Source: Phycisphaerae bacterium
Lineage (GTDB): Bacteria; Planctomycetota; Phycisphaerae; Phycisphaerales; Phycisphaeraceae
DNA length: 40,000 nucleotides
NCBI GenBank assembly: GCA_030426385.1
Contig: JAUHYI010000028.1
Span: 10,032 to 50,031, forward strand
Direction of reading: 5' to 3'
Part shown: in pieces, positions 4,625 to 29,261 of the stretch
How positions within the stretch are numbered: position 1 is the first letter of the stretch
Layout of the letters: the number at the start of each line of letters is the position of its first letter
The notes under the pieces: model-generated
Databases searched by the model: none
What the model was told of the DNA's origin: nothing
The model's input: only the letters and a program-made list of their open reading frames with translations
Translations under genes and position numbers: made by a program

Positions 4625-4697
4625 GCATGTGGGGGGACGTGGGAAGGAAAATTGCGCGGGGGAAAGTGGGTGGCGCGGGGGAAATGTGGGGGGGTAA
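4625..4697 (+). repeat. G-run repeat block (GGGGGAAATGT family), intergenic, G-rich on the plus strand
   Basis: catgtggggggacgtgggaaggaaaattgcgcgggggaaagtgggtggcgcgggggaaatgtggggggg. The block ends in a G7 run about 75-95 nt upstream of the downstream plus-strand gene. Confidence 0.8.
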
Positions 4698-8779: not shown

Positions 8780-8907
8780 CCCACGAAGAACTCGCACGTT
8801 AGCCGCCGCCTTTATGGCGGCGAGAGGGCCTGTGTTTACCCCACGATTCGTGCCGCCATAAAGGCGGCGGCTAACGATAAACTTCGCGCGTGGTTTTTGT
8901 AAGACTG
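8777..8907. repeat. Palindromic double-hairpin element, copy 1, plus right-hand module; flanked by a perfect 10-bp direct repeat
   Basis: Arms are CGTTAGCCGCCGCCTTTATGGCGGCG (8797-8822) and its near-perfect complement (8851-8876), around a roughly 28-nt spacer. GTCTTAGTCC occurs at 8767-8776 and 8908-8917. Confidence 0.8.
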
Positions 8908-9707: not shown

Positions 9708-10718
9708 CTAGCTGTTTTTCTCCGTCACGGGTAGGGCCGTCCCTTCAGTGTCTACAGCAACCTCACAGGCCGCTCCACCATCATTATCCGCTTCGGTGAT
9801 CAGGATTTCCTGGCCGGTGAATCCAAACGTCTCACGCAAATCGTCAGCCACCTGTTCGGCTTGTGTCTGATCGGCCACCACCGCATACAGGCTCGGTCCC
9901 CACGAACTTTGCCCCACGCCCGCCACGCCACCATCGCGCAGGTGCGTCACGATTTTTTCCAACAACGGATCGGCATAGATACCGCCTTGCGAGGCCGCGA
10001 AACATTGCCCGACCAATTGTTGCATGGTGAATAGCGCTTCGCCGAACGCATCGATGTCGTGTTCGATCACCGCCGGGGCCAAACCGAGCAACACCAGTCG
10101 GCACAGTTCTGCCGTCGTGTCACGCGGGATGGTGATGACCGTATCAAACGCGGCCTGTTCACGCTCGCCGCATAAACCTTCGAGTTGGTGCGGCCGAATC
10201 AAGACCACTCGCCATGCCTCGGGAAAATCCAACCGCAACAACATCGGCGACAAATCCGCACGATCGCGTTTGCCACCCTCGACAATGAACCCACCATGAA
10301 TAAAACCGTGCGCTCCAATCGCTGAGCGTTGCCCGCGTCCGACCAGATGCGCCAGTTTTGCCAGGGACATATCGGGAATGTCCAGCAATTTCGCCAACCC
10401 ACGCGCGACGGCCAATCCCAATTGCGTGCCCGTGCCCAACCCCGTGTGCGGCCGCGGTATTCGCAAGACCTGCACATGCACGCCATTCAAATCACGACCG
10501 ATGCCGCGTTCAGCAGCCTTTTCCAGAAAACGTTGGGCAAACGCGACCGCTCGATCATTCATACGCCCCTCGCCGGTGAATGCATCCGATGCGCTGAGGC
10601 GCACGATCGTGTCGGGTCGACGAATCATCAATCCGACACCACCAAATTGTCGCGGCTGGGCACGATCAAATGCCAGCAAACCAAAATGCAATCGGCTGGG
10701 GGTGCGGACCTCAATCAT
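9708..10718 (-). CDS. mptG: Beta-ribofuranosylaminobenzene 5'-phosphate (beta-RFAP) synthase, H4MPT biosynthesis
   Basis: GHMP-kinase-fold protein with SRLHFGL, GG.G, PRPHTGLGTGTQLGLAVA and RS.IG..GF..GGFIVEGG motifs typical of MptG. Confidence 0.8.
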   Translation of the reverse strand: MIEVRTPSRLHFGLLAFDRAQPRQFGGVGLMIRRPDTIVRLSASDAFTGEGRMNDRAVAFAQRFLEKAAERGIGRDLNGVHVQVLRIPRPHTGLGTGTQLGLAVARGLAKLLDIPDMSLAKLAHLVGRGQRSAIGAHGFIHGGFIVEGGKRDRADLSPMLLRLDFPEAWRVVLIRPHQLEGLCGEREQAAFDTVITIPRDTTAELCRLVLLGLAPAVIEHDIDAFGEALFTMQQLVGQCFAASQGGIYADPLLEKIVTHLRDGGVAGVGQSSWGPSLYAVVADQTQAEQVADDLRETFGFTGQEILITEADNDGGAACEVAVDTEGTALPVTEKNS

Positions 10719-12819: not shown

Positions 12820-13194
12820 TTACCGGGTCCATTTTTTCTTCATCAGGGCTTCGTATCCCTCGAACGGCGTATCGTCGTCAGGGGTGGGATGCCACAGCAA
12901 CAGGTCCTGCATTTTTTTCGCCAGGGCAAAATCCAGGTCGGTGATACCGTCCGCCGAATGGGTGGCCAGTTTGACGGTGAAGTGGCCGTAGGACACGTTG
13001 AGGTCGGGATGGTGGCAGGCGGCCTCCGCGAGATAGCCCAGGGCATTGACGCACATCAGGGTGTGCTGCCAGCCGCCGGTTTTGAATTTTCGGCGAATCC
13101 ATTGGCCATCGTATTCCCAGTCGGGCAATTCGTCAGCCAGACGTTGCTTGATGGCATCGTCGTTCAGGGCGGTAGGTTGGGTGGGTTTGGACAT
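12820..13194 (-). CDS. Pterin-4a-carbinolamine dehydratase (PCD/DCoH family)
   Basis: The 124-aa form MSKPTQPTALNDDAIKQRLADELPDWEYDG..W has AACHHPDL.VSYG.FTVKL.THS..GIT..D, typical of PCD. The upstream part of the 263-aa track ORF is R/H-rich shadow sequence. Confidence 0.8.
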   Translation of the reverse strand: MSKPTQPTALNDDAIKQRLADELPDWEYDGQWIRRKFKTGGWQHTLMCVNALGYLAEAACHHPDLNVSYGHFTVKLATHSADGITDLDFALAKKMQDLLLWHPTPDDDTPFEGYEALMKKKWTR

Positions 13195-13272
13195 GGTGTT
13201 TTCCTTGTTTGAGTAGGTCATTGTAAACCGAGCCACCGGGCTTGTCGGGTTTGCATTACAATTTGCGGTTCC

Positions 13273-14277
13273 ATGCTTGTGAATCAGGTCATTATCGAGG
13301 ATACGTTTGCCGAGGCATTTCGGATGTGGGCCAGCCGTCTGGTTGTGACGGCGATTGACCGCACCTGGTTGGATTTTGCCGTGCGCGAGGTGACGGGGTA
13401 CGGAACGAGCGTGATCGGTTGCGATGCCGAGGCAGGTGTGGAACGGTATCTGGATGAAAGCCAAACGCCGGACGGCCGAGTGGGGGCGTCGGTGATGTTT
13501 TATGCGTTCAATGCCAAAGCGCTGCAAAAATCGATTCCGAATCGGGCCGGGCAATGCGTGATGACCTGTCCGACGACAGCGGTGTACGACGGCATGCCCG
13601 AGGCCGGACAAGACCCGGATGATGAGGATTCAGCACGATTGGATCTGGGCAAACACATTCGGCGGTTCGGTGACGGGAATCAGAAAAGCAAAGTGTTGAA
13701 TGGCCGACGATTTTGGCGCGTGCCGGTGATGGATGGGGAGTTTGTGATTGAGGAATCATGCGGCGCAGTCAAAGCGATCGGCGGCGGAAATTTTCTGGTG
13801 ACCGGGCGGGGTCAACGCGCGACATTGGACGCAACACGACACGCGGTCGAAGCCATCGCGGCCGACGTGGTTGCGAATAACGGATCGGAAAGCGAAGGGA
13901 AAAATGTGGTGGGGAATGTGGGGGGAAATGTGGGGGGGGGTGGGGGGGTTGTGATGCCGTTTCCGGGGGGGGTGGTGCGTAGCGGGTCGAAGGTGGGTTC
14001 GATTTATAAAGCGCTGTTTGCGTCGACCAATGATGCGTTTTGTCCGACGGTGCGTTCGAAAACGAAGACGCAGTTACATAGCGGAGCGACGTGCTGTTAT
14101 GAAATTGTGATCAATGGCTTGAATGCGGAGGCGATCAGTCGTGCGATGCGGGTGGGCATTGAAACAGTTTGCGAAGCCGGGCCGGAACAAGTGGTGGCCG
14201 TCAGTGCGGGCAACTATGGCGGGAACCTCGGGAAGTTTCATTTCAAATTGCATGAGGTGATGGGCAAACAATCATGA
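13273..14277 (+). CDS. fhcD: Formylmethanofuran--tetrahydromethanopterin N-formyltransferase (Ftr / FhcD)
   Basis: IEDTFAEAF.MW.SR...TA, GYGTSVIGCDAEAG, PFPGGVVRSGSKVGS.YK...ASTN and EIVINGL motifs of Ftr. It carries an in-frame G-run repeat insertion (GKNVVGNVGGNVGGGGG). Confidence 0.9.
   Translation: MLVNQVIIEDTFAEAFRMWASRLVVTAIDRTWLDFAVREVTGYGTSVIGCDAEAGVERYLDESQTPDGRVGASVMFYAFNAKALQKSIPNRAGQCVMTCPTTAVYDGMPEAGQDPDDEDSARLDLGKHIRRFGDGNQKSKVLNGRRFWRVPVMDGEFVIEESCGAVKAIGGGNFLVTGRGQRATLDATRHAVEAIAADVVANNGSESEGKNVVGNVGGNVGGGGGVVMPFPGGVVRSGSKVGSIYKALFASTNDAFCPTVRSKTKTQLHSGATCCYEIVINGLNAEAISRAMRVGIETVCEAGPEQVVAVSAGNYGGNLGKFHFKLHEVMGKQS
13897..13948 (+). repeat. G-run 12-nt repeat block inside fhcD (in frame)
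   Basis: gggaaaaatgtg gtggggaatgtg gggggaaatgtg ggggggggtggggggg; encodes GKNVVGNVGGNVGGGGG. Confidence 0.85.
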
Positions 14278-15065
14278 GTGATCGCGGTGGTTACATTCTG
14301 ACATGGAAAGACACCAACAAGGTGGGGTTGTCGGATGGGACGATGCTGCGCCCGGATGTGTTGGGCGGTTTGTCGCGTGAGGCGTTGGGCGCGTTTGAAT
14401 TACCGGTGGGCCGCGAGCGGGTGGCGTTGTCGAAACTGTTTGAAATCGAGGGAGAGCATGGTGATAACGAGGGGTGTTTGACATTGCGGAATTTGCCGCG
14501 GTTGCCACGGGTTGGGGCGCGAATGGCAAGCGGTGAACTGGTGATTGAGGGTGATGCGGGCGATGGGTTGGGCGCATCGATGCGGGGTGGGGTGATTCGG
14601 GTGACGGGTCGTGTTGGCGATGAAGTGGGTGGCCCTGATTTTGGATCAGATCGGGGGATGGTGGGTGGCGAAATTTTTGTGGCCGGTGATGCGGGTGAGC
14701 GTGTGGGCTATCGGCAGCGCGGCGGTTTGATCGCAGTGGGTGGTTGTGCGGGGAAACTGGCGGGGTACCGCATGTTGGCGGGGACGATTGTGCTCAAACG
14801 CGGACCGTATGAATGCGTGGGTTTGGAATCACGGCGTGGGACGATGGTGTTGCTGGATGCGGATAGTCCGGTGGCGATGAACGCGACGATGACGATTGAG
14901 GGTGAGTTCGCCGCGTCGGAAATGGTGGCCGTGGGTTTGTTGATGCGACATTTAGGCGCGACGAGTGAACAGTTTGTTGGCGTGGTTCGTCCGGATACGA
15001 AAATACGATTGCTGAGTTTGGACCAATTTGAAATCAGGAAAGCGGAACTATGGCAGGTGTGTTGA
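14274..15065 (+). CDS. fhcC: Formylmethanofuran dehydrogenase subunit C homologue (FhcC)
   Basis: Glycine-rich beta-helix repeats (GDAGDGLGASMRGGVIRVTGRVGDEVGG, GGEIFVAGDAGERVGYRQRGGLIAVGG.AG). ATGA start/stop overlap with fhcD. Confidence 0.85.
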   Translation: MSDRGGYILTWKDTNKVGLSDGTMLRPDVLGGLSREALGAFELPVGRERVALSKLFEIEGEHGDNEGCLTLRNLPRLPRVGARMASGELVIEGDAGDGLGASMRGGVIRVTGRVGDEVGGPDFGSDRGMVGGEIFVAGDAGERVGYRQRGGLIAVGGCAGKLAGYRMLAGTIVLKRGPYECVGLESRRGTMVLLDADSPVAMNATMTIEGEFAASEMVAVGLLMRHLGATSEQFVGVVRPDTKIRLLSLDQFEIRKAELWQVC

Positions 15066-16003
15066 GTTTGAATGATCGTGCGTTGGCGGTGTGGCGTGAT
15101 GCGGCGGTGCGCGGTGCGGAATTGAACGTGTCGAGCCGATCGGTGATGGGTGCGCAGGTGATCGACGCGGGGGTGGATCAGTTGGGCAGTCTGGAAATTG
15201 GTTTGTTGTTGGCGCGAATCTGCCTGGCCGATTTAGCACAGGTGTCGCTGGTGCCTGGGCGCGTGGGTGGGGTTATGGTTCCGACGGTGGCGGTGAATGT
15301 GTTGCAGCCGGTGGCGGCGTGCATGGCCAGTCAGTATGCGGGTTGGCAGATCGCAGTGGATCAATATTTTGCGATGGGGTCGGGGCCGATCCGTGCGTTG
15401 TATGGCAAGGAAGCGTTGTTTGACGATATTGGTTTTCGAGAGAAACCGAAGGTGGGCGTGGGTGTTTTGGAAACATCGCAATTGCCGGATGAGGGGGTGG
15501 TCGCGCACATTGCCGGTAAATGCGGATTAGCGCCGGAACGATTGACATTGTTATGTGCGCGCACGGCAAGCATGGCCGGTGGGGTGCAGGTGGTGGCCCG
15601 CAGCGTGGAAACGGCGATGCATAAATTGCATGAGTTGAAATTTGATCTGTCGCGGGTGGTGGCGGGTTATGGTGTGGCACCGGTTCCGCCAGTGGCGAAA
15701 AACGATATGAAAGCGATCGGGCGGACCAATGATGCGGTGTTGTACGGGGGCGAGGTGACGCTGTTCGTGACCGGCGATGACGCATCGATTGCGGACGTGG
15801 GCAAGCAATTGCCATCGTCGAGTTCGTCGGATTATGGTCGGCCGTTCGCGGAAATTTTTAAGCGGTACGATCACGATTTTTACAAGATCGATGCGATGTT
15901 GTTTTCGCCTGCGGTGGTGAGTCTGCAGAATGTGGAGACGGGCGTGACGCAGACGTTTGGTGCGGTGGATCATGGGGTTCTGGGCGAATCGTTTTTTGGA
16001 TAG
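15050..16003 (+). CDS. mch: Methenyltetrahydromethanopterin cyclohydrolase
   Basis: 317-aa translation with the Mch pattern (SLN.RA..........L.V....G..VID.G, ACMASQYAGW.I....YFAMGSGP.RAL, TND...YGG.V.L). 16-nt overlap with fhcC. Confidence 0.9.
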   Translation: MAGVLSLNDRALAVWRDAAVRGAELNVSSRSVMGAQVIDAGVDQLGSLEIGLLLARICLADLAQVSLVPGRVGGVMVPTVAVNVLQPVAACMASQYAGWQIAVDQYFAMGSGPIRALYGKEALFDDIGFREKPKVGVGVLETSQLPDEGVVAHIAGKCGLAPERLTLLCARTASMAGGVQVVARSVETAMHKLHELKFDLSRVVAGYGVAPVPPVAKNDMKAIGRTNDAVLYGGEVTLFVTGDDASIADVGKQLPSSSSSDYGRPFAEIFKRYDHDFYKIDAMLFSPAVVSLQNVETGVTQTFGAVDHGVLGESFFG

Positions 16004-16072
16004 GGGGAAGGGGAATAACCACAGAGGCACGGAGGCACAGAGGAAGGCAGGGATGGTTGTCTGGAACTCGTG

Positions 16073-16153
16073 CGTTAGCCGCCGCCTTTATGGCGGCGCG
16101 GGGGTTTGGGGTTTATTGACGATGGCACGCCGCCATAAAGGCGGCGGCTAACG
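16073..16153. repeat. Palindromic double-hairpin element, copy 2 (between mch and the ATP-grasp gene)
   Basis: The left arm at 16073-16098 is identical to copy 1. The right arm at 16128-16153 is its perfect complement. The spacer is divergent. Confidence 0.85.
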
Positions 16154-16213
16154 GGGAATCATGCGAGAAAAATTATTGGAATCTGTATCAGTGTGTGGGT
16201 GGGAGAATTAATT

Positions 16214-17299
16214 ATGAAAACGGTGATCTTGAATTCGACGGGGGAGGGGTGGCATGCGGAGGATTTGGTGCGCGCGTTGGGCGAGGTGGATGAGCAACAA
16301 CGTGGTGGAGCGCATGTGGTTGGGTGGGAAAATGTCGAAGCGAGTGTGGGGGGGCATGCTGATGGGCATGTGAATGGGCGTTCAGACCGAAGCGGGGGTT
16401 GGATGTGGCGAGGAAATGAGGGAGAGAAAACAGTGGGAGAAGTGGTGGGAAAAACGCAGGGAAACGTGGGGAAAAACGTGGGGGGAAGCGCGGGGGAAAA
16501 AGTGGGGGGGGTGGGGGGGGTGGATGCGATTGTGTTGCGAGCGATGGGTAGCGCGTCGTTGGAACAGATTGTGTTTCGGATGGATGTGATGTTGCGATTG
16601 GAATCGCAGGGCGTTTATTTTGTGAATGGTCCGCGATCGATTGAGGCGTCGGTGGATAAATATCGGGCGAGTGGATTGATTGCGGATGCAGGGGTGGCGG
16701 TGCCTGCGACCCGGGTGTGTCAGCGGGTGGATGATGCGATGCGTGCATTTGAGGATTTGGGGGGTGATGTGATCGTGAAGCCGTTGTTCGGGAGCGAGGG
16801 GTTTGGGATGATGCGTGTGAGCGATCGCGGGTTGGCGGCGCGGGCGTTTGCAACGATCGGACAGATTGGCGGGGTGATGTATGTGCAAAAGTTTGTGGAT
16901 CATTTGCATGGCGTGGGCGGTGACTATCGTTTGTTCGTCGTGGGCGATCAGGTGGTGGCGGCGATGCAACGGCGAGGGGTGGGTGGGCCTGACGGTGCGG
17001 AGGCGTGGCGAGCGAATGTGGCGCGCGGGGGGACGGTGGTGGCATGTGCGTTGGATGGTATGAATGCCGCGTGGCAGGCGATGGCGGTGCAGGCGGCGCG
17101 GGCGTGTGGCGCGAATGTGGCGGGTGTGGATGTGCTGGTCGATCGCGATGGGCGAGCGCATGTGATTGAAGTGAATTCGTCGCCGGGGTGGAAAGCGTTG
17201 GCAGGGATAACGGGCGTGGATGTGGCAGGTTGTATTGCGCGGTATATCTGGGATGCGGTGCATGAGCGCAAACACAAGGCGGTCACCGCGCATGCATAA
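16214..17299 (+). CDS. RimK-family ATP-grasp ligase (MptN-like H4MPT/methanofuran glutamate ligase)
   Basis: ATP-grasp motifs (VIVKPLFGSEGFGM, YVQKF, DYRLFVVGD, VDVLVDRDGRAHVIEVNSSPGW). GGAGA RBS before ATG 16214. About 75 aa of N-terminal low-complexity insertion contains G-run repeats. Confidence 0.8.
   Translation: MKTVILNSTGEGWHAEDLVRALGEVDEQQRGGAHVVGWENVEASVGGHADGHVNGRSDRSGGWMWRGNEGEKTVGEVVGKTQGNVGKNVGGSAGEKVGGVGGVDAIVLRAMGSASLEQIVFRMDVMLRLESQGVYFVNGPRSIEASVDKYRASGLIADAGVAVPATRVCQRVDDAMRAFEDLGGDVIVKPLFGSEGFGMMRVSDRGLAARAFATIGQIGGVMYVQKFVDHLHGVGGDYRLFVVGDQVVAAMQRRGVGGPDGAEAWRANVARGGTVVACALDGMNAAWQAMAVQAARACGANVAGVDVLVDRDGRAHVIEVNSSPGWKALAGITGVDVAGCIARYIWDAVHERKHKAVTAHA
16441..16522 (+). 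repeat. G-run repeat block inside the ATP-grasp gene (in frame)
   Basis: ...gggaaacgtggggaaaaacgtggggggaagcgcgggggaaaaagtgggggggggtggggggggtgg; encodes QGNVGKNVGGSAGEKVGGVGGV and ends in two G8 runs. Confidence 0.85.
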
Positions 17300-18317
17300 A
17301 TTACCGAGTCCAGGACAGATCGCGCAATGGGCCTGTGTGGCTGAGGTCAGTGCCAAAAAAGCGGGGAATGTGCATCCGGGGCAGGGCGGTGCGTTTTCGG
17401 ATTGTGATTGGGAATCGTTTGTGGTCAGCGCGATGGTATGTCGGCCGATTCTGGATCGTGTAGCCGAGTTGGGTGTAGGCCAGGCAGTGTTGGCCGCGGT
17501 GAAAGCGACGCGCGACGCGGTGGGGGTGAATACGAATTTAGGGATGTTGTTGCTGTTAGCGCCGTTGTGTGTGACGGTGGAACGCGAGGCATTGCGTGGC
17601 GTGTTGGATGGGATTGATGGGGATGCGATGTATAAAGCGATTCGGTTGGCCAAGCCCGGCGGGTTGGGAACGGTGGATGAGGGAGATGTGCATGATGCGG
17701 GTGGATTGGGACGCGAGAAGGACGGGGAGAGGGCTAAGCCGCAAGGGGCGGGTCATGCGAGTGGGAATGCAGGGGGAAAAGCGGGGGGAAACGTGGGGGG
17801 GAATGCGGGGGGAAATGTGGGGGGGGTTATGGATGCGATGCGTTTGGCCGAAGCGCGTGATGGGATTGCCCGCGAATATGTGAATGGATTTGCAGGCGTG
17901 TTTGATTTTGTAGCGCGGCGGTTGGTGGAACGATACGATGCGGGCGAAGCGCTTGACCGAGCGATTGTGCGGGTGCATCTGGAATTGATGGCGCGGCAGC
18001 CTGATACGTTGATTGCGCGTAAGTGTGGGCAGGGGGTTGCGGATGAATCGGCACGGCGGGCGCAGAAGGTTTTGGATTGTGAAGCGGCTGATTTTGATCG
18101 GGAATTTGTCGGGTTTGATGCATGGTTGCGGGCCGATGGGCACACGCGGAATCCGGGGACGAGTGCGGACCTGATAGCCGCGGGGTTGTTCGTGGCGATG
18201 GCGCGGGGCGAAATTACGATGCCCTGGCGATGGGATGATGCGATTGAGCCGACTTATGAATTGGATGATGACGAAAACGCTGACGGTATCGCTGGCGGTT
18301 ACGATGACGATGAATGA
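17292..18317 (+). CDS. Triphosphoribosyl-dephospho-CoA synthase (CitG/MdcB) family protein of H4MPT clusters
   Basis: ACVAEVSAKKAGNVHPG, NTNLGMLLL.APL, PDTLIARKCG and NPGTSADLIAA motifs of the CitG family. ATG 17292 overlaps the upstream stop. It carries an in-frame SGNAGGKAGGNVGGNAGGNVGG insertion. Confidence 0.75.
   Translation: MHKLPSPGQIAQWACVAEVSAKKAGNVHPGQGGAFSDCDWESFVVSAMVCRPILDRVAELGVGQAVLAAVKATRDAVGVNTNLGMLLLLAPLCVTVEREALRGVLDGIDGDAMYKAIRLAKPGGLGTVDEGDVHDAGGLGREKDGERAKPQGAGHASGNAGGKAGGNVGGNAGGNVGGVMDAMRLAEARDGIAREYVNGFAGVFDFVARRLVERYDAGEALDRAIVRVHLELMARQPDTLIARKCGQGVADESARRAQKVLDCEAADFDREFVGFDAWLRADGHTRNPGTSADLIAAGLFVAMARGEITMPWRWDDAIEPTYELDDDENADGIAGGYDDDE
17761..17827 (+). repeat. 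G-run 12-nt tandem repeat inside the CitG-like gene (in frame)
   Basis: gtgggaatgca gggggaaaagcg gggggaaacgtg ggggggaatgcg gggggaaatgtg ggggggg; five to six 12-nt units. Confidence 0.9.
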
Positions 18318-18341
18318 CACGACGTTGTAGGGCGATCAAGT

Positions 18342-19439
18342 ATGGCTGATGGGTGTGGTGAGCATGTGAACGTGTTGGCGCTGGACATCGGCGGGGCGAA
18401 TATCAAATGGGCCACGTCGAGCGGAGCGTATGGTTCGCATCCATTTGCGTTATGGAAAGCGCCGGAATTATTGGTGGATGCGTTGCGTGTGTTGGATCGC
18501 GAGCATATGCCGGGGCGTTGGCTGGTGACGATGACGGGCGAGTTGTGTGATTGTTTTGAAACCAAGCGAGCGGGGGTGGAGCATATTTTGCAGGCAGTGG
18601 TTTCGGCAGCGTCAGGGAAAAAAGATGAGGATGAAAACGGAAACGCGCGTGTCGTGGTGTGGGGATGTGGGCGCGGCGCGGGGGGATTTGTTTCGGTGGA
18701 TGACGCGAGGGATGATCCAATGTCGGTGTCTGCGGCGAACTGGCATGCGCAAGCGTCGGTGATTGGCAGGCGATATCCGGTTGGTCGGACGTTGCTGATT
18801 GATATGGGGTCGACGACGACGGATGTGATTCCTTTGCGAGATGGCCGAGTGGATGCGGTGGGTCTGACGGACACGGGGCGATTGGCTACGGGCGAGCTGG
18901 TGTATGTCGGCGCGCGGCGAACGGCATTGATGGGTGTGGTTGATCGCGTGGTTTGTCAGGGGCAAACCTATCGGGTGATGAACGAGCGTTTTGCGACGGC
19001 GTTGGATGTGCAGTTATTGTTGGGGCGGATGAATGATGATGCATCGAATGTGGATACCGCGGACAATCGACCTGCGACGCGGGACTGTGCGGTGACGCGG
19101 ATGTTGCGCATGATCGGTGCGGACCGTGAGATGATGTCGGTTGATGATGCGGTGGCGATCGCGCGATCGTTTGACAATGCGATGCGGCAACGCGTGTTGG
19201 ATGAATCGGTTTTGTCACTGGGTGCGAATAGCCATGATGATGTTCACCGATGGGATCGAATTGTGATTTCAGGTTCGGGCGAATGTGTGTTGTCCGCATG
19301 GTTCGCGGATTTGGGTTTGGATGCGAATTCGGCGCAAAGGCTATCGGTTGAACGATTGGGTGATATGGTCGGGCCGCAAGCGACGGAAGCGGCGTGTGCG
19401 TGGGCGTTGTTGCAACTGGATCAAGAAAAAGAAGATTGA
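18342..19439 (+). CDS. Hydantoinase-A/oxoprolinase-like protein of H4MPT/methanofuran clusters (MfnF-like)
   Basis: ASKHA-fold signatures LALDIGGANIK and LLIDMGSTTTDVIPL; size and context match the H4MPT-linked hydantoinase-A-like family. Confidence 0.7.
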   Translation: MADGCGEHVNVLALDIGGANIKWATSSGAYGSHPFALWKAPELLVDALRVLDREHMPGRWLVTMTGELCDCFETKRAGVEHILQAVVSAASGKKDEDENGNARVVVWGCGRGAGGFVSVDDARDDPMSVSAANWHAQASVIGRRYPVGRTLLIDMGSTTTDVIPLRDGRVDAVGLTDTGRLATGELVYVGARRTALMGVVDRVVCQGQTYRVMNERFATALDVQLLLGRMNDDASNVDTADNRPATRDCAVTRMLRMIGADREMMSVDDAVAIARSFDNAMRQRVLDESVLSLGANSHDDVHRWDRIVISGSGECVLSAWFADLGLDANSAQRLSVERLGDMVGPQATEAACAWALLQLDQEKED

Positions 19440-19440
19440 C

Positions 19441-20076
19441 ATGAATACGGATTGTCCACGACATGTGATCAAGCTTGGCGGCAGTTTGTTGAGCCTGTCT
19501 GATTGGGGTGAGCGGCTGGTGCGTTTTTTAGCCTCGAGCGATGAGGAAGTGCTGGAAAAAGAAGGAAAAAAAGGGGGGCAAGTGGCCCGATGCGGTGGGG
19601 TGTTGGTCGTGGGTGGTGGTGGTGCTGCGGATATGGTGCGGGCATGGTGTGCGACCCATGAGATTGATGATGCGACGGGACACGAGTTGGCTGTTGATGC
19701 GATGCGGTTTAATGCGGGGATGGTCGTGGCGGTGTTGCGAAAATTAGACGTGGACTATCAGTGGGTGGCACGCGGGGACGACTTGGATCGTTTGCACGAC
19801 GGTTGCCTGGCGATCATTGATCCGGTGACGTGGCTTGCTCATGCGGACGTGCCGCGGGTCTGGCAATTCACCAGCGATTCGATTGCAGCACGCGTGGCCA
19901 CGGATATCGAGGCGGGACGTTTGACGTTATTGAAAAGCACGTTGCCGAATGACGATGATGCGGTTGCATCGGCGGGCATCGTGGATGATTGGTTTGCTCG
20001 GGCGTCGGCAAGTTTGCCTTGGGTGGAGCTGGTTAATTTGCGTGATGATGCGTTGCCGGCGTGGCGGCTGCGATGA
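19441..20076 (+). CDS. Amino-acid-kinase-fold protein of H4MPT/methanofuran clusters (MfnE-like candidate)
   Basis: N-terminal VIKLGGSLL and VLVVGGGGAAD motifs of the aspartate/glutamate/uridylate kinase fold. ATG 19441 directly follows the upstream stop (19437-19439). The upstream part of track ORF 19285-20076 is a shadow frame. Confidence 0.65.
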   Translation: MNTDCPRHVIKLGGSLLSLSDWGERLVRFLASSDEEVLEKEGKKGGQVARCGGVLVVGGGGAADMVRAWCATHEIDDATGHELAVDAMRFNAGMVVAVLRKLDVDYQWVARGDDLDRLHDGCLAIIDPVTWLAHADVPRVWQFTSDSIAARVATDIEAGRLTLLKSTLPNDDDAVASAGIVDDWFARASASLPWVELVNLRDDALPAWRLR

Positions 20077-20779
20077 TCTGCTTCAGCTCGGCGACACGTT
20101 GCGCGTCGATGGCTGATTGCCGATCGTGATTGGTGCAAGCTGCTCCACGGACCGCGATGATATCGGGACGCAATGTGGCAACCTGTTGGACAAGCTCGCT
20201 GCGCAACGAACCGGCCAGCGCGATGAATAGGCCGTCGGCATGGGCACGATTGATCCAGGCGTTGAGTTGGCCGGGCGTGGCGTGGTCCAACAATGTTTGG
20301 CCGTTTTTGATGGCGGTGTCGATCAGGATCCCCGCCGCGCGATGGGTGATGGCGTAGTCGATGATTTCATCGACAGTGGGTGTGGGTGTGGGTGGTGGGG
20401 GGGAGGTGGTGGGGGGGATTGATGCGTGGTCGGCGTAGGCGGTGGGGATCAAGCGTGGGTGGCCGGTGAGTTGTGCGCGCCAATCACGTGGCGCGTTGGC
20501 CAAACCAATTTTGACGAAATCCAGCGGAATATCGCTGGGAAAACGATCGGTTTGATCGACCAGTTCGCCCAGGGCTGCGCTGACAGGGAGGTAGGGTTGC
20601 GATTGATTCGCCTGTTGTTGTTGGTGTTGTTTGACGGTGGCGACGATCGCTCGAATCACGTCATGGTCAGCGCGACCCAATGCGCCATGGGCGGGTTCTT
20701 TGATATCGATGATGTCAGCGCCACCCGCCATGGCGGCGCGGCATTCATCGACATGGCGCACACTGACCAGCAATTGCAT
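20033..20779 (-). CDS. mfnB: (5-formylfuran-3-yl)methyl phosphate synthase (MfnB, DUF556 family), methanofuran biosynthesis
   Basis: MQLLVSVR...EC..A..GGADIIDIKEP..GALG, DFVKIGL, ILIDT..K and ALAGSL motifs of the MfnB family. It contains Q-rich and PPPPTPTPT insertions. Confidence 0.8.
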   Translation of the reverse strand: MQLLVSVRHVDECRAAMAGGADIIDIKEPAHGALGRADHDVIRAIVATVKQHQQQQANQSQPYLPVSAALGELVDQTDRFPSDIPLDFVKIGLANAPRDWRAQLTGHPRLIPTAYADHASIPPTTSPPPPTPTPTVDEIIDYAITHRAAGILIDTAIKNGQTLLDHATPGQLNAWINRAHADGLFIALAGSLRSELVQQVATLRPDIIAVRGAACTNHDRQSAIDAQRVAELKQIIAAATPATHHHAN

Positions 20780-20784
20780 CGCGA

Positions 20785-22080
20785 CTATTCCTTGCTGCCC
20801 ACGGGAGTTTGTTGAGGAGCGTTCGTGTCGGACTGTTCGTCCGAATTATTCAGGCCATCCGTTTTCATGAGTTCCTGCAACACCACGGTCGCGTACGCGC
20901 CGGGTGGCAATTCAAAACTCAATCGGATGTACGGGCCGTTTTCATCGACACCGCCTGCGATATCCGGATCGCGTAATGGCACGCGCAATGATCGGCGACT
21001 GCCGCGCAGTGAGGCGAGATCCGATTCGGTTAAATCGCATTCGGCCAGGACTTCATTTTCCAAGGTCGCGACGGCGTCGGTGGGTTGCATCATGTCGGCA
21101 CCCCAGATCGGTCCGCTGGGTGAAACTTTTTGCGAGGGGATGCGTCCGTCGTTGCTGTTTTCTAATGTGGCGGTGTCAGCATCGACGGTAAAAATTGAGC
21201 CGTTGTCATGTTTGTAAGCCAGATCGCCGGGTAACAAGCGATCGAATGTTTTGTTTTGCAAACGTTTTTCGAGCACGCGATTGAACAGGTCACTTTGCAA
21301 GGCATTGAGGAAAAATCGGCGTTGCTCTTCATCGAGTTTTTTGGCCGCGTCCGATTTGGATACGCCTTGCCGTAACAGGTCGAGGGCGTGTCGTTCCTGA
21401 TGCGCGTATTTTGGCCAATGGGATAACGCGGTGTCATAGTCGCCACGTTGATAGGCTTCGCGGCCTGCAGCGATATCCACATTTTCCGACGCGATGCTAT
21501 GGCCCAAGAGCAAGTCCATGGCAGACTCAAATTCGTTGAGCAATAACGCGCGGCCGATCTGGTGATTGATGTGTCGATAGCCGAAGCGTTGTTCGCCGAA
21601 ATAGTTGGGCACGCCACACCGGGTCAACATGTCAAGGATGGGCCGAGCCCGCAGGACGGCGGTCGGGTCGACATCACGGATGTAAATCACAAACCGATTG
21701 CCTGCCAGATGGCCGCGTCGCAATTTGGTGGTGGTTCGCTCAGCCCAGAGCAATTTGAACGGCGTGTGCCGAATGTTTTCCAGTCGCTTTTGTTCTTCGT
21801 CAGGATCAACGCGGCCGGGCAGGTGTACGGTCAGGTGTTGACGAGTGATCGCATGCTTATCCTTCAAGCCTGCGTAGCCGATATCGGATCGACGTACGCG
21901 AAACAGCTTGGCCAAACGTCGGACCATGTCAGTGGTGGCAGCGCCGCGTTTTTCGACGTAGAGCATCAGGTGCTCGCCCTCGCCGGACGGTTGATAGAGG
22001 GGTTGTTCTTCGACGAGAAAATCATCAGGCCGGGCCTTGATGCGTCCGCCTACGCCGGGAATATCGTCAGTCAAATACAT
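20785..22080 (-). CDS. truD: tRNA pseudouridine(13) synthase TruD
   Basis: DDF.V.E, GYAGLKDKHAITRQ and PNYFGEQRFG motifs. The start is ATG 22080 (alternative TTG 22104). Confidence 0.85.
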   Translation of the reverse strand: MYLTDDIPGVGGRIKARPDDFLVEEQPLYQPSGEGEHLMLYVEKRGAATTDMVRRLAKLFRVRRSDIGYAGLKDKHAITRQHLTVHLPGRVDPDEEQKRLENIRHTPFKLLWAERTTTKLRRGHLAGNRFVIYIRDVDPTAVLRARPILDMLTRCGVPNYFGEQRFGYRHINHQIGRALLLNEFESAMDLLLGHSIASENVDIAAGREAYQRGDYDTALSHWPKYAHQERHALDLLRQGVSKSDAAKKLDEEQRRFFLNALQSDLFNRVLEKRLQNKTFDRLLPGDLAYKHDNGSIFTVDADTATLENSNDGRIPSQKVSPSGPIWGADMMQPTDAVATLENEVLAECDLTESDLASLRGSRRSLRVPLRDPDIAGGVDENGPYIRLSFELPPGAYATVVLQELMKTDGLNNSDEQSDTNAPQQTPVGSKE

Positions 22081-22100
22081 GTTGTTTTTTGCGCCTGTTT

Positions 22101-23081
22101 TCAATCTTCGGGCGCGTTGTTTTTGACCAAGCCCTGGAACGCTTCGAGTAAGCGTTTGGTCATCAGCCCGGGTTGTCCGTTGCCAATGGCACGTCCGTCG
22201 ACCTTGGTCACGGGAATAATTTCCGCCGCGGTGCCGGTCAAGAACATTTCGTCAGCGGTGTAGAGGTCATGTTTGGTCAGGTCGGGGCGAGTCACCGGAA
22301 TGCCTGCTTTTTGTGCCAGGGCGATGACCGTGTTCATGGTGATGCCTTCGAGGGCACCGGCATGCAACGGTGGTGTCATCAATACGGGTTTGCCGGTCGG
22401 ATCGGGTCGCACGATAAAAATGTTATCGCCGGTGCATTCGGCCACGTAGCCTTGCGGGTTGAGCATCACCGCTTCCAGCAGGCCCGCGTCGATGGCTTCG
22501 ATCTTGGCAAGGATGTTGTTGAGGTAGTTCATGCTCTTGATGCGCGGCGACAGGGCGCCGGGATGGTTGCGCATCACGGACGAGGTGATCACGGTCATGC
22601 CGTTTTTGTAGAGCTCTTCGGGATACAGTGTGATTTTGTCAGCGATGATAAATACGCTTGGCTTGGCACAGGTGAATGGATGTAACCCGAGTGCTCCGAC
22701 GCCGCGTGTGACACACAGACGGATGTAACCATCGGTGAGCTTGTTGGCTTGGACGGTCTGGCGTGTGGCGGTGGCTAGTTCTTCGATGGACAGGGGGATA
22801 TCCAGACGGATCGCCTGGGCCGATTCGTAGAGCCTTCGCAGGTGAGTGCCGAGTTTGAAAATTCGGTTGTTGTAGACGCGGATGCCTTCGAACACGCCGT
22901 CGCCGTAGAGCAGGCCGTGGTCGAACACACTGACCATGGCTTCGCCCGGTGGCACGAGTTTGCCGTCGAGGTAGATGCGTTTGTCCGCATGTTGAGCCGA
23001 GGGTGTTTCCACCGGTGAGGCAGCTGCGGTGGAAGAGGCGTCTGAGGCCGTTGTTGCCGGCTTGTTTGATAGGGTAGTCAC
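22101..23081 (-). CDS. ilvE: Branched-chain amino acid aminotransferase (class IV)
   Basis: DHGLLYGDGVFEGIR.Y, YIR..VTRG, K..NYLNNILAK.EA and ECTGDNIF motifs. GTG start with a 30-aa S/T/A-rich N-terminal extension. Confidence 0.9.
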   Translation of the reverse strand: MTTLSNKPATTASDASSTAAASPVETPSAQHADKRIYLDGKLVPPGEAMVSVFDHGLLYGDGVFEGIRVYNNRIFKLGTHLRRLYESAQAIRLDIPLSIEELATATRQTVQANKLTDGYIRLCVTRGVGALGLHPFTCAKPSVFIIADKITLYPEELYKNGMTVITSSVMRNHPGALSPRIKSMNYLNNILAKIEAIDAGLLEAVMLNPQGYVAECTGDNIFIVRPDPTGKPVLMTPPLHAGALEGITMNTVIALAQKAGIPVTRPDLTKHDLYTADEMFLTGTAAEIIPVTKVDGRAIGNGQPGLMTKRLLEAFQGLVKNNAPED

Positions 23082-23174
23082 AGTAAAAGCTCCGACAGGG
23101 GGAATCTACCAGTATACATCGTCAAATCCCAAGGAACATCCTAATGTGGGGCGAGCCGATGAATTAAATCGTGC

Positions 23175-23210
23175 AAAAAAAATGCCGGGCGGCACAAAGG
23201 CCGACCCGGC
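23175..23210 (-). terminator. Rho-independent terminator downstream of tsf
   Basis: The minus strand reads GCCGGGTCGGC-CTTTGT-GCCGCCCGGC followed by A-TTTTTTTT: a 10-bp GC-rich stem with a one-base bulge, a 6-nt loop and a T8 tract, 47 nt after the tsf stop. Confidence 0.8.
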
Positions 23211-23257
23211 TAGGGGGGGTAAAATTGGGGGCAAATCCCAATCGCCTGATATGACGA

Positions 23258-24061
23258 TTATTCGCCCAGTTTGTACCGCACGAAAGCGGTGATTTTGGCA
23301 CCCTTGGGCAGGAAATCACGGACTGGTTTTTTCGAGTCCATTTCCCGCAGGTACTGTTGTCCCAATAGGGTATTGTCGTCGATCCATTTACGCAATTTGC
23401 CGGTGGCAATTTTCTCAGCAATTTCCTGAGGCTTGCCTGATGCCTTGGCTTCTTCGATGGCGGCCTGTTTGTTCTTTTCGACCTCATCGGCGGGCAGGCC
23501 TGCCTGGTCGACGGCGATCGGTGTGGGGACCGAAGCGGCGATGTGCTGGCAAATGCCGGTGAGCAGGTCGTCGGACAGATCGCCTTCGCCAGCGATGATG
23601 ACGCCGACCTGACGATTGTGGTGCAGGTATGAGCCGACCTTCTCGCCGGAGAGCTTGTGGCCCTTGGCGACGGAAATGTTTTCCTTGATGGTGATGCGCA
23701 GCTCATCGGTGATGGCGGTCATCGCTTCGGTCGCGGTGATGTCGCCGTCGGCTTCGCTGACAGCCATCTCGGCGATTTTGTCGGCCGCTTCGACGAAGGT
23801 GTCGTTCTTGGCAGCAAAGTCGGTTTCAGACTGTAGCTGGATGATGGCTACTTGGCCGTCCTTGGCTGACAGAGCGATGGTGCCTTCGCCCGCTTCGCGG
23901 TCGGCACGCTCGTCCATTTTGCCCTTGAGCTGTTTACGCAGCAATTCAATGGCCGCGTCGATATCGCCGTCGGTTTCGGTGAGTGCTTTTTTGCACTCCA
24001 TCATGCCCAAGCCGGTGCGGTTGCGCAGGCTCATGACGTCTTTGGCGCTGATGGTCGCCAT
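23258..24061 (-). CDS. tsf: Elongation factor Ts
   Basis: MATISAKDVMSLRNRTGLGMMECKKALTETDGDIDAAIELLRK: the canonical EF-Ts UBA-like N-terminus and core. Confidence 0.95.
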   Translation of the reverse strand: MATISAKDVMSLRNRTGLGMMECKKALTETDGDIDAAIELLRKQLKGKMDERADREAGEGTIALSAKDGQVAIIQLQSETDFAAKNDTFVEAADKIAEMAVSEADGDITATEAMTAITDELRITIKENISVAKGHKLSGEKVGSYLHHNRQVGVIIAGEGDLSDDLLTGICQHIAASVPTPIAVDQAGLPADEVEKNKQAAIEEAKASGKPQEIAEKIATGKLRKWIDDNTLLGQQYLREMDSKKPVRDFLPKGAKITAFVRYKLGE

Positions 24062-24150
24062 GGGGGGAATCTCCGGTTGGACCCGCGTGTGGTGCGGGTC
24101 GGTGTGTTTGAAATCAAAAAACGTAAAAACGTATTAACAGGTAAAAATTA

Positions 24151-24210
24151 CACGTAGCCTACCCTTGTCTATCGTGGCCTACCCTGGCCCGTCGTGGCCT
24201 ACCGTCGTTT
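24151..24210. repeat. Three tandem 20-bp repeats in the rpsB-tsf spacer
   Basis: cacgtagcctacccttgtct / atcgtggcctaccctggccc / gtcgtggcctaccgtcgttt. The core (A/G)GCCTACC sits at exactly 20-nt spacing (24156, 24176, 24196). Confidence 0.8.
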
Positions 24211-24341
24211 TATTCAAGACCCATCAAACCCAATTGAGCCGACGAAACACATGAAATGACACATGTCAGGCAAGCAAGGGAAACGCAGGGTACGTGGCCG
24301 ACGACGGCAGTGCTGGGCTGGTGTGGGGGGGGGGTGGGGGG

Positions 24342-25229
24342 TTAGGCTTGGGGTTCAGCGGCGGCGACGGGCTCAGCCGGTGAGGCTGGTGGCGTGGCCG
24401 GTGCTGCGGGGGCTTCGGTTGTTTCGGCAGCGGCGGTTTCACCAGCGGCCGGGGCTTCGCTATTGTCAGCCGAGAACATGGCTCGTCGGCTACGTTTGCG
24501 TTGCGGTTCACCGCTGGCATTGTTGTCTTGACCGCGGGCAGCCACGGTACGCGTGCCTTTGCCTTCGTTGACGGCGGCACACAATTGCGAGATGACCACT
24601 TCGATCGAACGCATGGCATCATCGTTGCCGGGGATGGCAATGTCAGCCATGTCGGGATCCGAATCGGTGTCGATCAGGCAGATGGTGGGGATGCCGAGTT
24701 TACGGGCTTCCTTGACCGCGTTGGTTTCGCGTTTGACATCGACGATGACCAATGCGCCGGGGAGCTTGGTCATGTTGCGAATGCCGTCGAGGTTGCGTTT
24801 GATTTTGGTGCGTTCGCGCATCAACTGTGATTCCATTTTCTTGGAATAGTTGTTGATTTCGCCGGACTCGACGAGGTTGTCGAGTTCATCAAGGCGTTTG
24901 AGGCGTTCGCGAATGGTGCGGAAGTTGGTGAGCGTGCCACCGAGCCAACGTTCGGTGACGTAAGGCATGCCGGTTTCGCCGACGATGGTTTCGATGCAGT
25001 TGCGGGCCTGTCGTTTGGTGCCGACGAAGAGGACGTCTTTGCCCGAGCCGACCAGTTGTGTCAGGTATCGTCGAGCGAGCAACAAGCCCTTGACGGTGGT
25101 TTTCACATCAATGATGTGGATCTTGTTGCGTTTGCCGTAAATGTACGGCGCCATCTTGGGGTTCCAGTTGGTGGCACGGTGGCCAAAATGGATACCGGCT
25201 TCAACGAGGTCTTTGACGAGAGATGCCAT
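24342..25229 (-). CDS. rpsB: 30S ribosomal protein S2
   Basis: [10 protein letters not shown]....[43 protein letters not shown] upstream. The C-terminal tail is A/P/E-rich. Confidence 0.95.
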
Positions 25230-25510
25230 AACGAGCTCCTGGGAAAGTGTCGGCCGATCGGTGACGGTCCTATGTGAGCCTTTTTGGACTCATTGGCAGG
25301 GTTGCGTCACGAACCACCCTTGTCCGAATTATCCCGAGTTTGCCAACGTTTTGAGGGTCTTGCGGACCTTGAGACGTTGTTTATACCTGGGAAAAGGTGG
25401 GGGGCTCAGCCTGTTTGTCCGTAAAATCTTCAATATTTACGGTGAAAAAAGCGTCGCTCCAAACTGCTCGACCATCGAGCTGGACCGACGACAACATTTT
25501 GTATTATGAA

Positions 25511-25582
25511 CCACCCCCCCCACATTCCCCCCCACACGTACCCACATTTCCCCTCCGTGCCTCCCGCATTTCCCCCGCAATT
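25511..25582 (-). repeat. G-run repeat block (C-rich on the plus strand), intergenic upstream of rpsB
   Basis: ccaccccccccacattcccccccacacgtacccacatttcccctccgtgcctcccgcatttcccccgcaatttc. Confidence 0.8.
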
Positions 25583-25766
25583 TCGTACACGCTCTCCGCA
25601 TGCACGTGGCACAGCTTGTACCCTCACTTCAAATGGTTCAGTAGCGCAAAAACCCATTGTACGCATCGTCAGCATACTTGCAAGTGGCAGGGGTCAAACT
25701 GAACACGCGATGCCTGCGGTCGTCACCCGATCCATGCGAATGGCAAGTGGAATAGCAAGGATAGTG

Positions 25767-25824
25767 CGGTGGGGTGTTGGGGGGAGGGGAGTGGGATGGA
25801 GTGGAGGGGGGGAGTGGGGGGGAG
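25767..25824 (+). repeat. G-run repeat block, intergenic, G-rich on the plus strand
   Basis: cggtggggtgttggggggaggggagtgggatggagtggagggggggagtgggggggag. Confidence 0.75.
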
Positions 25825-25866
25825 CGAATAATCCCAATCCCGATAAAAACCATGCATGTGGTAAAT

Positions 25867-25946
25867 CGTTAGCCGCCGCCTTCATGGCGGCGCGATGGTC
25901 TAGGTTTGACGCACGTTTCGCGCCGCCGTGAAGGCGGCGGCTAACG
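25867..25946. repeat. Palindromic double-hairpin element, copy 3
   Basis: The arms at 25867-25892 and 25921-25946 are the same as in copies 1 and 2, except for paired substitutions in the arm loops (TTTAT to TTCAT, ATAAA to GTGAA). Confidence 0.85.
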
Positions 25947-26024
25947 ATAAAGCACGCGAAATCGCGCGTGTGTATGTTTGTGGGGTGGGTATTATACGGA
26001 TTACGATAAATACTCGCGCGTAGA

Positions 26025-26097
26025 TTTTTATTAGCTCCCGGTGAATACCGGGAGTTTGTGTGAAGGGAAATTTGAGGCCGCGCGAGTTTTTAATGGG
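26025..26097 (+). repeat. 73-bp repeat (left copy) containing the hairpin CTCCCGG-tgaata-CCGGGAG followed by TTTGTGTG
   Basis: It is the exact reverse complement of 39925-39997. I derived this by hand base by base. Confidence 0.85.
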
Positions 26098-26120
26098 GTG
26101 GATATCATCCCGAAATGATG

Positions 26121-26197
26121 ACAAGAAATGGCGAAGAAATGGCGAAGGAATAGCCAAGAAATGGCCAAAGAATTGCGGAGGAAATGTGGGGGGGGGT
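26121..26197 (+). repeat. 11-nt tandem repeat (about 7 units) decaying from ACAAGAAATGG to a terminal G9 run, abutting the stop codon of the transferase gene
   Basis: acaagaaatgg cgaagaaatgg cgaaggaatag ccaagaaatgg ccaaagaattg cggaggaaatg tggggggggg. Confidence 0.8.
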
Positions 26198-29228: not shown

Positions 29229-29261
29229 GAATGCGATGCTTGTTCTGAACATGCCCGCGTG

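Follow-up and report, generated by a model that had tools for sequence, protein, structure and literature searches.

Low-complexity regions in prokaryotic proteins form by proliferation of short repeats and slippage (Persi et al., 2023, PMC10120016), G-quadruplex (G4)-forming minisatellites such as human CEB1 are unstable in yeast lacking Pif1 in an orientation-dependent manner (PMC7063842, PMC5491262), and Rickettsia palindromic elements are mobile repeats inserted in frame into protein genes (PMC10969869). Clusters of G-runs occur near expectation in most prokaryotes and are over-represented in Microcystis, Anabaena, Nostoc and the planctomycete Isosphaera pallida (PMC4060949). This report describes a family of tandem G-run arrays, some of them in frame within conserved enzymes, in a stretch of 40,000 nucleotides (hereafter the window) from a Phycisphaerae bacterium (assembly GCA_030426385.1, contig JAUHYI010000028.1, positions 10,032 to 50,031 of the forward strand). 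The arrays are probably lineage-specific, G4-prone minisatellites that arose in place by a slippage-type error of DNA copying and not by selection for a protein feature.

Like low-complexity insertions, the inserts in the window are in frame, lineage-specific, compositionally biased, located in loops of conserved enzymes and tolerated rather than required, with the base bias of the genome and slippage as driver there and probably here; the Asn-rich inserts in housekeeping enzymes of Plasmodium falciparum are a similar case. Low-complexity insertions are, however, built on microsatellite units of 1–6 nt, whereas the unit in the window is an 11–12-nt G-run minisatellite, equally common in intergenic and antisense DNA, and its arrays carry a one-sided purity gradient. 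As in CEB1, tandem units each bear G-runs with strong predicted G4 potential, but CEB1 consists of 39-nt units at one subtelomeric eukaryotic locus while the arrays of the window are short, bacterial, placed inside genes of an essential pathway and known from sequence alone.

Rickettsia palindromic elements, reportedly described in frame within coding genes by Ogata et al. in 2000, resemble the window family in occurring both in intergenic DNA and in frame in conserved genes, where the insertions are surface-exposed and leave function intact. They are palindromes of 100–150 bp with a fixed consensus, present as single copies, whereas the arrays of the window are polar tandem repeats, non-palindromic and almost C-free, whose units and lengths vary. 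No hairpin or inverted-repeat body was found in the arrays, complementarity existing only between separate arrays and folds without G4 being weak (−8 to −12 kcal/mol); a fixed full-length consensus per insertion is likewise absent from the window arrays, in which unit type, period and array length vary by locus, as are dispersed single copies of one fixed 9–12-mer (the pattern of DNA uptake sequences), the copies being tandem and the units variable.

The window shares with G-pattern-rich genomes, one of which is a planctomycete, an over-representation of clustered G-runs, some of them tandem, but surveys of such patterns are genome-level only and do not deal with in-frame enzyme arrays or polarity. 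The short tandemly repeated repetitive (STRR) sequences of cyanobacteria are mainly intergenic heptamer repeats (e.g., CCCCAGT). Telomeric and interstitial telomeric repeats are also composed of short G-rich units, with degenerate variants proximally and pure units distally, towards the G-strand 3′ end; unlike telomeres, the arrays are internal, their unit is non-uniform and no telomerase-like enzyme was seen in the window, nor is one known for such arrays. The undescribed element class proposed in a preliminary description of this DNA is thus too strong a claim, as in-frame short-repeat insertions, G4 minisatellites and G-pattern-rich bacterial genomes are known (PMC10120016, PMC4060949, PMC7063842). 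A consistent one-sided polarity of such repeats was not found described in a limited literature search, and what is distinctive here is the G-run minisatellite unit, the density of the arrays, their occurrence in mRNAs that encode central enzymes and, most of all, the uniform one-sided polarity.

Arrays within genes and in intergenic DNA

The repeat unit (consensus GGGGGGAAATGT) consists of a G-run and a short spacer, and units are arranged head to tail at all sites with periods of 9–14 nt and 2–7.6 copies (Tandem Repeats Finder). The arrays listed in the preliminary description are all present at or near the positions it gave; within genes they occupy four sites in sense and three or four in antisense orientation, and at least six more lie between genes (4631, 25514, 25771, 26121, 29163, and 36670). 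Under a direction-symmetric rule (G-runs of at least 3 chained at gaps of at most 9 nt, with at least four runs and at least one run of at least 6) the window contains 13 arrays, with G on the plus strand in nine and on the minus strand in four, whereas 200 simulations under a local second-order Markov model, which keeps the trinucleotide make-up, give 1.29 ± 1.16 (at most 5); loci of relatives hold four arrays in 1.27 Mb, i.e., 0.13 per 40 kb. The 17-mer GGGGGAAATGTGGGGGG has 19 matches in the window with at most two mismatches (0.06 expected). Base composition as the sole cause was ruled out because the simulations give few arrays and a strongly skewed locus of a relative (L008, skew −0.29) has only one weak array, so that the excess over composition supposed at the outset is significant within the window.

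NCBIfam and Pfam matches agree with the gene identities assigned earlier (Table 1). Three of the sense arrays lie in an operon for tetrahydromethanopterin/methanofuran-dependent one-carbon (C1) metabolism with the order fhcD, fhcC-like, mch, MptN/RimK-like ATP-grasp, CitG-like, MfnF-like and MfnE-like, the MfnB gene being convergent; these three had been taken for consecutive enzymes, but fhcC-like and mch separate fhcD from the ATP-grasp gene, and they belong to a single operon without being strictly consecutive. The nearest FhcD relatives in a genome scan are metagenome-assembled genomes (MAGs) of Phycisphaerae/Planctomycetota with 62–64% identity and conserved gene order, and a search of 5.8 billion proteins with FhcD again returned nothing closer than these Phycisphaerae MAG relatives.

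No examined orthologue carries the Gly/Asn-rich segments. The fhcD insert (~25 residues) is missing from 13 of 13 FhcD orthologues, the ATP-grasp insert from seven (five of them syntenic Phycisphaerae), the CitG-like insert from five, and the epimerase insert from nine homologues, with the Pfam and NCBIfam matches split around it; the Pro/Thr segment of MfnB differs from three orthologues (the ATP-grasp, CitG and MfnB orthologues come mostly from syntenic Phycisphaerae loci). Native residues are kept on both flanks of each insert, the 5′ borders fading into degenerate sequence and the 3′ borders adjoining conserved residues. Since one family occurs in sense, antisense and intergenic DNA, and neither the four sense inserts nor the MfnB segment is present in the orthologues, the arrays have a DNA-level origin and are lineage-specific, in agreement with the preliminary description, which had set a DNA repeat against an ancient protein feature.

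The insert of FhcD could also be placed on a solved structure of Ftr (1FTR), as had been suggested. Residues 2–191 and 192–295 of 1FTR align to FhcD residues 2–196 and 222–329, and because the alignment resumes without a gap the insert sits between adjacent residues 191 and 192 of Ftr. An AlphaFold model of FhcD based on 36 sequences (predicted template modelling score, pTM, 0.83 overall) has a predicted local distance difference test (pLDDT) score below 50 and no secondary structure at residues 206–223, directly after a helix at 181–203, and the insert is predicted to be a disordered loop.

FhcD proteins of sister Phycisphaerae (P0042, P0064, P0066, P0075, and P0082) carry inserts of 30–70 residues (EGRHEGTKGRRDEGTKG...) in a different loop, after GDGHQKSK. 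At one such locus (L209) a different repeat, (GGCACGRA)n, lies inside the FhcD insert (10412–10579) and in an intergenic spacer (872–915), which indicates that repeat colonisation of genes recurs in the clade. As for the epimerase, the public gene call (P0129, 368 aa) begins at MADVHAVYHLAAT and is devoid of the N-terminal Rossmann GxxGxxG part, which is encoded by the open reading frame (ORF) of the window starting from TTG at 29054 and matches galE residues 3–112; the public start is probably mis-called.

The four sense arrays share one phase, GGG GGA AAT GTG (Gly-Gly-Asn-Val), while the other two would yield Cys-rich (GGKC) or Trp/Met-rich (GEMW) peptides. The reported coding capacity is confirmed, with G-G-N-V/A from sense units and Pro/Thr/Ser stretches from the antisense arrays of MfnB, the exosortase and the acidic ORF (Table 1). 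Of the spacings between G-runs, 18 of 27 in coding and 5 of 23 in intergenic DNA are divisible by 3 (Fisher p = 0.002); 12 coding spacings measure exactly 12 nt and seven intergenic ones 11 nt. Such a difference is what a single blind mutational process leaves after selection on the reading frame has filtered it; the pattern itself is plain in the counts, and we infer selection as its cause. Selection would act only as a filter, genic survivors being those with 3n periods, sense arrays those in the harmless phase (GGNV) and antisense arrays those with spacers lacking AAA (P/T/S), and arrays would persist where surface loops or linkers tolerate them. The loops that they encode are probably neutral passengers.

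The arrays are predicted to be strongly G4-prone, in line with the capacity ascribed to them earlier: the window contains 19 canonical G4 motifs, G4Hunter scores reach 2.0–2.9 at all arrays with 25 windows at or above 2.0 against 6.1 simulated, and the sequences combine at least four G-runs of at least 3 bases with short loops and tandem units. Folding of the sense mRNAs (86–106 nt) by ViennaRNA gives −49 to −64 kcal/mol when G4 is allowed vs. −8 to −12 without it. RNA G4 motifs are reportedly depleted in bacterial mRNAs (attributed to Guo and Bartel, 2016), and long homopolymers are usually avoided by bacterial genomes. Homopolymers of at least 8 inside ORFs comprise G9 and G8 in fhcD, two G8 in the ATP-grasp gene and one G8 in the CitG-like gene; runs of G8–G9 length are classical contingency tracts in other bacteria.

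The G4 strength predicted for the sense mRNAs, three arrays upstream of rpsB and the G8–G9 runs in three genes of a single pathway would suit selected functional elements, either G4 regulatory signals, phase-variable switches (G8–G10 in ORFs) or useful flexible Gly/Asn or Pro/Thr loops. Such a role is nonetheless improbable, given that arrays lie in either orientation relative to genes and are found in linkers, at gene ends and between genes with no consistent position relative to starts, that orthologues work without the inserts, that the FhcD insert is predicted to be disordered, that the polar decay described below is typical of unconstrained sequence, and that no frameshift variant occurs among the assemblies compared.

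Polarity, strand bias and mode of growth

Read 5′ to 3′ on the G strand, run lengths are 3, 4, 6, 9, 7 in FhcD; 3, 3, 3, 4, 6, 5, 8, 8 in ATP-grasp; 3, 5, 6, 7, 6, 8 in CitG; 3, 5, 7, 8 in the epimerase; and 3, 5, 5, 5, 7, 7, 7, 7, 7 in the array at 36670. Over the 13 arrays the summed Kendall S is 93 (null sd 17.7, z = 5.3), a value reached in none of 100,000 within-array permutations, and the longest run is within the last two in 11 of the 13. Controls are flat, with no polarity in 100 arrays from unrelated G-rich contigs (z = 0.32) or in 31 arrays from other metagenome loci (z = −0.12). The assertion that every inspected array is polar therefore stands for the set as a whole within the window and does not extend to the arrays at 24315 and 25771, which are individually non-polar. 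Unit identity to the 12-nt consensus also climbs 5′ to 3′ (CitG, rho 0.79, p 0.004; epimerase, rho 0.70, p 0.005). Polarity tracks the G strand irrespective of the direction of the gene or the strand of the window, which rules out translation-level selection as its cause, and directional growth, as first suggested, is the simplest reading of the purity gradient. Neither outcome that the preliminary description named as refuting it was seen: no orthologue examined has the segments, and polarity and enrichment over composition are both significant in the window.

Between ~13 and 28 kb the top strand is G-enriched at synonymous sites regardless of gene orientation. The GC skew at third codon positions (GC3 skew, coding strand) ranges from about +0.3 to +0.69 in plus-strand genes and from −0.29 to −0.53 in neighbouring minus-strand genes, and GTG/GCG/ACG make up 68–78% of their codon families in the former while GTC/GCC/ACC make up 52–71% in the latter. 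Through this enrichment Gly-Gly and Pro-Pro codons natively contain runs of G6–G8; in FhcD, for example, a G8 lies in the codons of the conserved PFPGG. The region from ~13000 to 28000 forms an island of extreme synonymous strand asymmetry, with a G- and T-rich top strand, the asymmetry being about zero at 6–12 kb and mild at 29–40 kb; the island is too local for a simple replication-strand effect.

In the mechanism proposed for slippage in place, the starting point would be a G-enriched strand that already carries G6–G8 at Gly-Gly/Val-Gly codons of plus-strand genes and Pro-Pro codons of minus-strand genes. During G-strand synthesis nascent G-runs would misalign on neighbouring C-runs and the unit would be recopied; since recopying needs upstream G-runs, new units would be added to the 3′ end of the array, read on the G strand, and point substitutions would erode the older 5′ ones. 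Addition at the 3′ end and decay at the 5′ end would together generate the observed gradient of purity and run length. Structures in the nascent strand generally give expansions.

A polarity of telomeric form, in which the G strand carries degenerate units proximally and pure ones at its 3′ end, would also be expected of a dispersing or enzyme-templated element, that is, if units were written onto G-strand 3′ ends by a telomerase-like reverse transcriptase or a primase-polymerase in break repair, or if array fragments were copied between loci by microhomology-mediated template switching. The spacers lend this some weight, as AAATGT or AATGT recurs at at least seven separate loci, the 17-mer is exact at four unrelated loci (4677, 13921, 17808, and 36715) and near-exact at three (25516, 26177, and 28522), GT precedes 24 of 29 runs of G≥7 vs. 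11% for G3 runs (p = 1e-18), and the 3′ junctions are sharp. On the other hand, units differ by array and periods run from 9 to 14 nt, with the spacers AAATGT, ATGT, AACGT, AATGC, CAGT, CGGAGT, TGAGGT, and AGT; inverted termini are absent, complementarity being confined to separate arrays; no reverse transcriptase or other cognate polymerase is present among the window genes examined, and no candidate template RNA was found in the window (gene families, Rfam); and native residues are retained on both sides of the inserts, which is unexpected for break healing. Target-site duplications were represented, by eye, by fuzzy similarities of 7–8 of 10 nt at insert borders, which were not counted as evidence. 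This explanation is therefore regarded as unlikely; the templated addition put forward in the preliminary description found no direct support, and neither termini nor target duplications nor a uniform unit were seen to go with the mobility implied by its term "colonises".

Unit variants specific to one array (ATGT four times at 36670; CGGAGT/CAGT at 29163; TGAGGT/AGGT at 38319) indicate local amplification. Tandem Repeats Finder assigns period 12 to the arrays at 13903, 16447, 17755, 28509 and 38319 and period 11 to those at 26123, 29172 and 36668. The arrays show local amplification plus some shared source or exchange among them.

Occurrence of the family in other assemblies and metagenomes

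Logan contigs lying inside the window, from runs ERR3420974 and SRR24442557 (the latter is named in a study of a biofloc aquaculture metagenome, PMC10582022), match it at 99.9–100%. The arrays at 1559, 4625, 20376, 28507, 29026, 29163 and 29432 are base-for-base identical in the Logan assemblies (20376 in contig L206; 4625 in L208; 28507 and 29163 in L210). Contigs break inside the FhcD, CitG and 36670 arrays (L207 inside the last), as repeats are expected to break assembly at k = 31. One SRR24442557 contig is identical over ~5,080 bases except for its last bases, at the 3′ end of the fhcD array, where it reads G7-AATGT-G5 instead of the G9-T-G7 of the window and ERR3420974, i.e., three substitutions at equal length; the variant may reflect unit conversion or a G-biased change at the growing end, or k-mer cross-talk at the contig end.

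The three contig breaks, and the existence in public metagenomes of unrelated hyper-G contigs with G54–G59 runs, might recall a sequencing or assembly artefact (two-colour poly-G or low-complexity mis-assembly). This is very improbable in view of the reading frames kept in seven genes, the structured units that are not plain poly-G, the base-for-base recovery in independent ERR3420974 assemblies and partly in SRR24442557, and the fact that breaks are expected for repeats at this k-mer length.

A metagenome scan with the 17-mer gave 120 loci, and among them no related lineage carrying the family was found, which also speaks against a templated or dispersing element. About 30 of the 120 were set aside as unrelated hyper-G-rich contigs of samples Ga0179593/Ga0179591, non-polar and without homology to the window. 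These contigs (a subset of L084–L197; e.g., L184 216–397 and L145 2030–2114) have ~49% GC, a GC skew of +0.2 to +0.6 and poly-G runs of up to 54–59 bases, all on one strand, and may stem from faulty sequencing or from a highly unusual template. Most other loci were discarded as single copies of a recurrent conserved element and not arrays. The sequence tgtGGGGGGaaatgtGGGGGGaatttt occurs singly in two recurrent conserved contexts across many unrelated metagenomes (L086, L094, L100, L115, L144, L146, L154, L189, and L203; and L097, L099, L107, L124, L137, L139, L162, L174, L181, L191, and L193), which are probably widespread conserved or mobile elements unrelated to the window arrays. The best array-like match (L160) was rejected as it appears fungal. 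A viral scan gave three single matches, at chance level, a search with a synthetic peptide made from the repeat translations found nothing, and Rfam had no family in the window.

Several points weigh against slippage-driven growth in place. The arrays analysed come from only 40 kb of one MAG. The gradient could also reflect G-biased substitution or conversion that purifies 3′ units, and not their youth, and the same-length fhcD variant fits such a process equally well. No length polymorphism was found among the assemblies, seven arrays being identical between window and Logan contigs, so that the ongoing expansion implied when the repeat was called "expanding" is at most putative. That the nascent strand might fold after several runs have been synthesised, and so favour misalignment, is pure conjecture. 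Finally, the AAATGT spacer at at least six loci and the GT before long runs are more uniform than independent local origins predict, which calls for some exchange between arrays or a source common to them.

Array inventory and implications

The features are listed in Table 1. The block at 26121, counted earlier among the intergenic arrays, does belong to this set, but it is mostly (AAGAAATGGCG)n and its G9 is terminal only.

Table 1. G-run arrays of the window and the genes that carry them.
Feature	Position	Strand	Description
fhcD gene	13273–14277	+	NCBIfam and Pfam matches
fhcD in-frame insert	13861–13950	+	array core 13897–13948 (...G4 AATGT G6 AAATGT G9 T G7, reading ...GGGG AATGT GGGGGG AAATGT GGGGGGGGG T GGGGGGG); encodes ADVVANNGSESEGKNVVGNVGGNVGGGGGV
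RimK/MptN-like ATP-grasp ligase gene	16193–17299	+	NCBIfam and Pfam matches
ATP-grasp ligase (MptN/RimK-like) in-frame insert, ~41 aa	16385–16522	+	core 16433–16520; ~12-nt units, final G8 T G8
CitG-like gene	17220–18317	+	NCBIfam and Pfam matches
CitG-like in-frame insert, ~38 aa	17700–17827	+	core 17760–17827; period 12, ~5.8 copies, ending AAATGT G8
SDR epimerase gene	27681–29054	-	NCBIfam and Pfam matches
SDR epimerase in-frame insert, ~45 aa	28507–28640	-	G-rich strand is sense; ~10–13 period-12 units, final G7 AACGT G8
MfnB gene	20033–20779	-	NCBIfam and Pfam matches
MfnB antisense G-run array	20376–20418	+	encodes PPTTSPPPPTPTPT
Exosortase gene	36989–39358	-	NCBIfam and Pfam matches
Exosortase antisense G-run array	38319–38388	+	periods 12 and 9; linker past EpsH domain; encodes PPPTSPTSPPTSPTTSPTTSPTT
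Long acidic ORF	700–2076	-	
Acidic ORF antisense G5 T G10	1556–1574	+	poly-Pro (PPPPPP); another G7 at 1871
Intergenic array	4631–4694	+	G6...G5 AAATGT G7; between chlorite-dismutase-like gene and UDPGP gene
Cluster at rpsB 3′ end	24315–24353	+	G3, G10 T G6, G4; individually non-polar
Intergenic array upstream of rpsB	25514–25576	- (G strand)	final G7 AATGT G8
Intergenic array	25771–25822	+	final G7 AGT G7; individually non-polar
Intergenic degenerate (AAGAAATGGCG)n	26121–26196	+	period 11; final GGAAATGT G9, immediately past GT4 stop codon
CGGAGT-G6 / CAGT-G7 units	29163–29227	+	period 10–13; intergenic or in doubtful 163-aa ORF
Short cluster with G10	29432–29461	- (G strand)	contains G10
Intergenic period-11 array	36670–36764	- (G strand)	degenerate units, then exact GGGGGGGATGT units (five G7, four ATGT spacers) at 3′ end

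The C-rich array at 25514–25582 and the G-rich array at 26171–26196 form an imperfect inverted pair ~600 nt apart, with arms of 19–23 nt that are 87–89% complementary; the pair brackets the upstream region of rpsB, where the 25771 array and a REP-like pair are also located. The motif G[GA]ATGCGAT lies within 3–17 nt 3′ of three arrays (16524, 17833, and 29231) and in two of the genes encodes a conserved Asp-Ala-(Ile/Met); a shared 3′ flank GGATGCGAT after three arrays was dismissed as a weak signal, ATGCGAT being frequent on that strand (18 copies).

Other repeats occur beside this family. At 970–1504 in the acidic ORF (minus strand) there are hexamer-based repeats, (CTTTTG)6.5 and (GCTTCG)n, with periods of 6, 12 and 18, which encode AKAKAKAKAK and E/A-rich low complexity and at which contig L208 breaks. 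A second family is represented by the 24-mer CGTTAGCCGCCGCCTTYATGGCGG, found as inverted pairs in intergenic DNA at 8797–8876, 16073–16153 and 25867–25946 (six copies vs. 0 expected); one pair lies between mch and the ATP-grasp gene, and that at 25858–25955 has 38-nt arms with 89% complementarity. This family looks like a palindromic element of the repetitive extragenic palindrome/bacterial interspersed mosaic element (REP/BIME) type. Tandem repeats at 29261–29366 and 24153–24203 are unrelated to the G-run family; they comprise two 16-nt repeats (GGAACCCTGACCTCCC ×2.6 and TTGTAACTCTGACCTC ×3.4) and a 20-nt repeat (CGTGGCCTACCCTGGCCCAT ×2.5) between tsf and rpsB.

G4-prone arrays occur about once per 3 kb in this window, including within enzymes of the central C1 pathway. 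Their practical effect is that they break short-read assemblies and may mislead gene callers. The one-sided gradient constitutes a built-in record of the order of unit addition and opens the direction and mechanism by which minisatellites grow to tests in a natural system, and the period of 12 in one phase within genes vs. 11 between them offers a clean view of selection filtering blind mutation into new loops. It is conceivable, though doubtful and a shade less likely than the dispersing or enzyme-templated element considered above, that an active process of directional repeat-writing, by G4-coupled recopying of the nascent strand or by a dedicated template-using enzyme, adds G-run units at 3′ ends genome-wide. 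If this were true, such writing would make new loops in essential enzymes and leave G4-prone mRNA, and would be a bacterial counterpart, at internal sites, of telomere-like polar growth.

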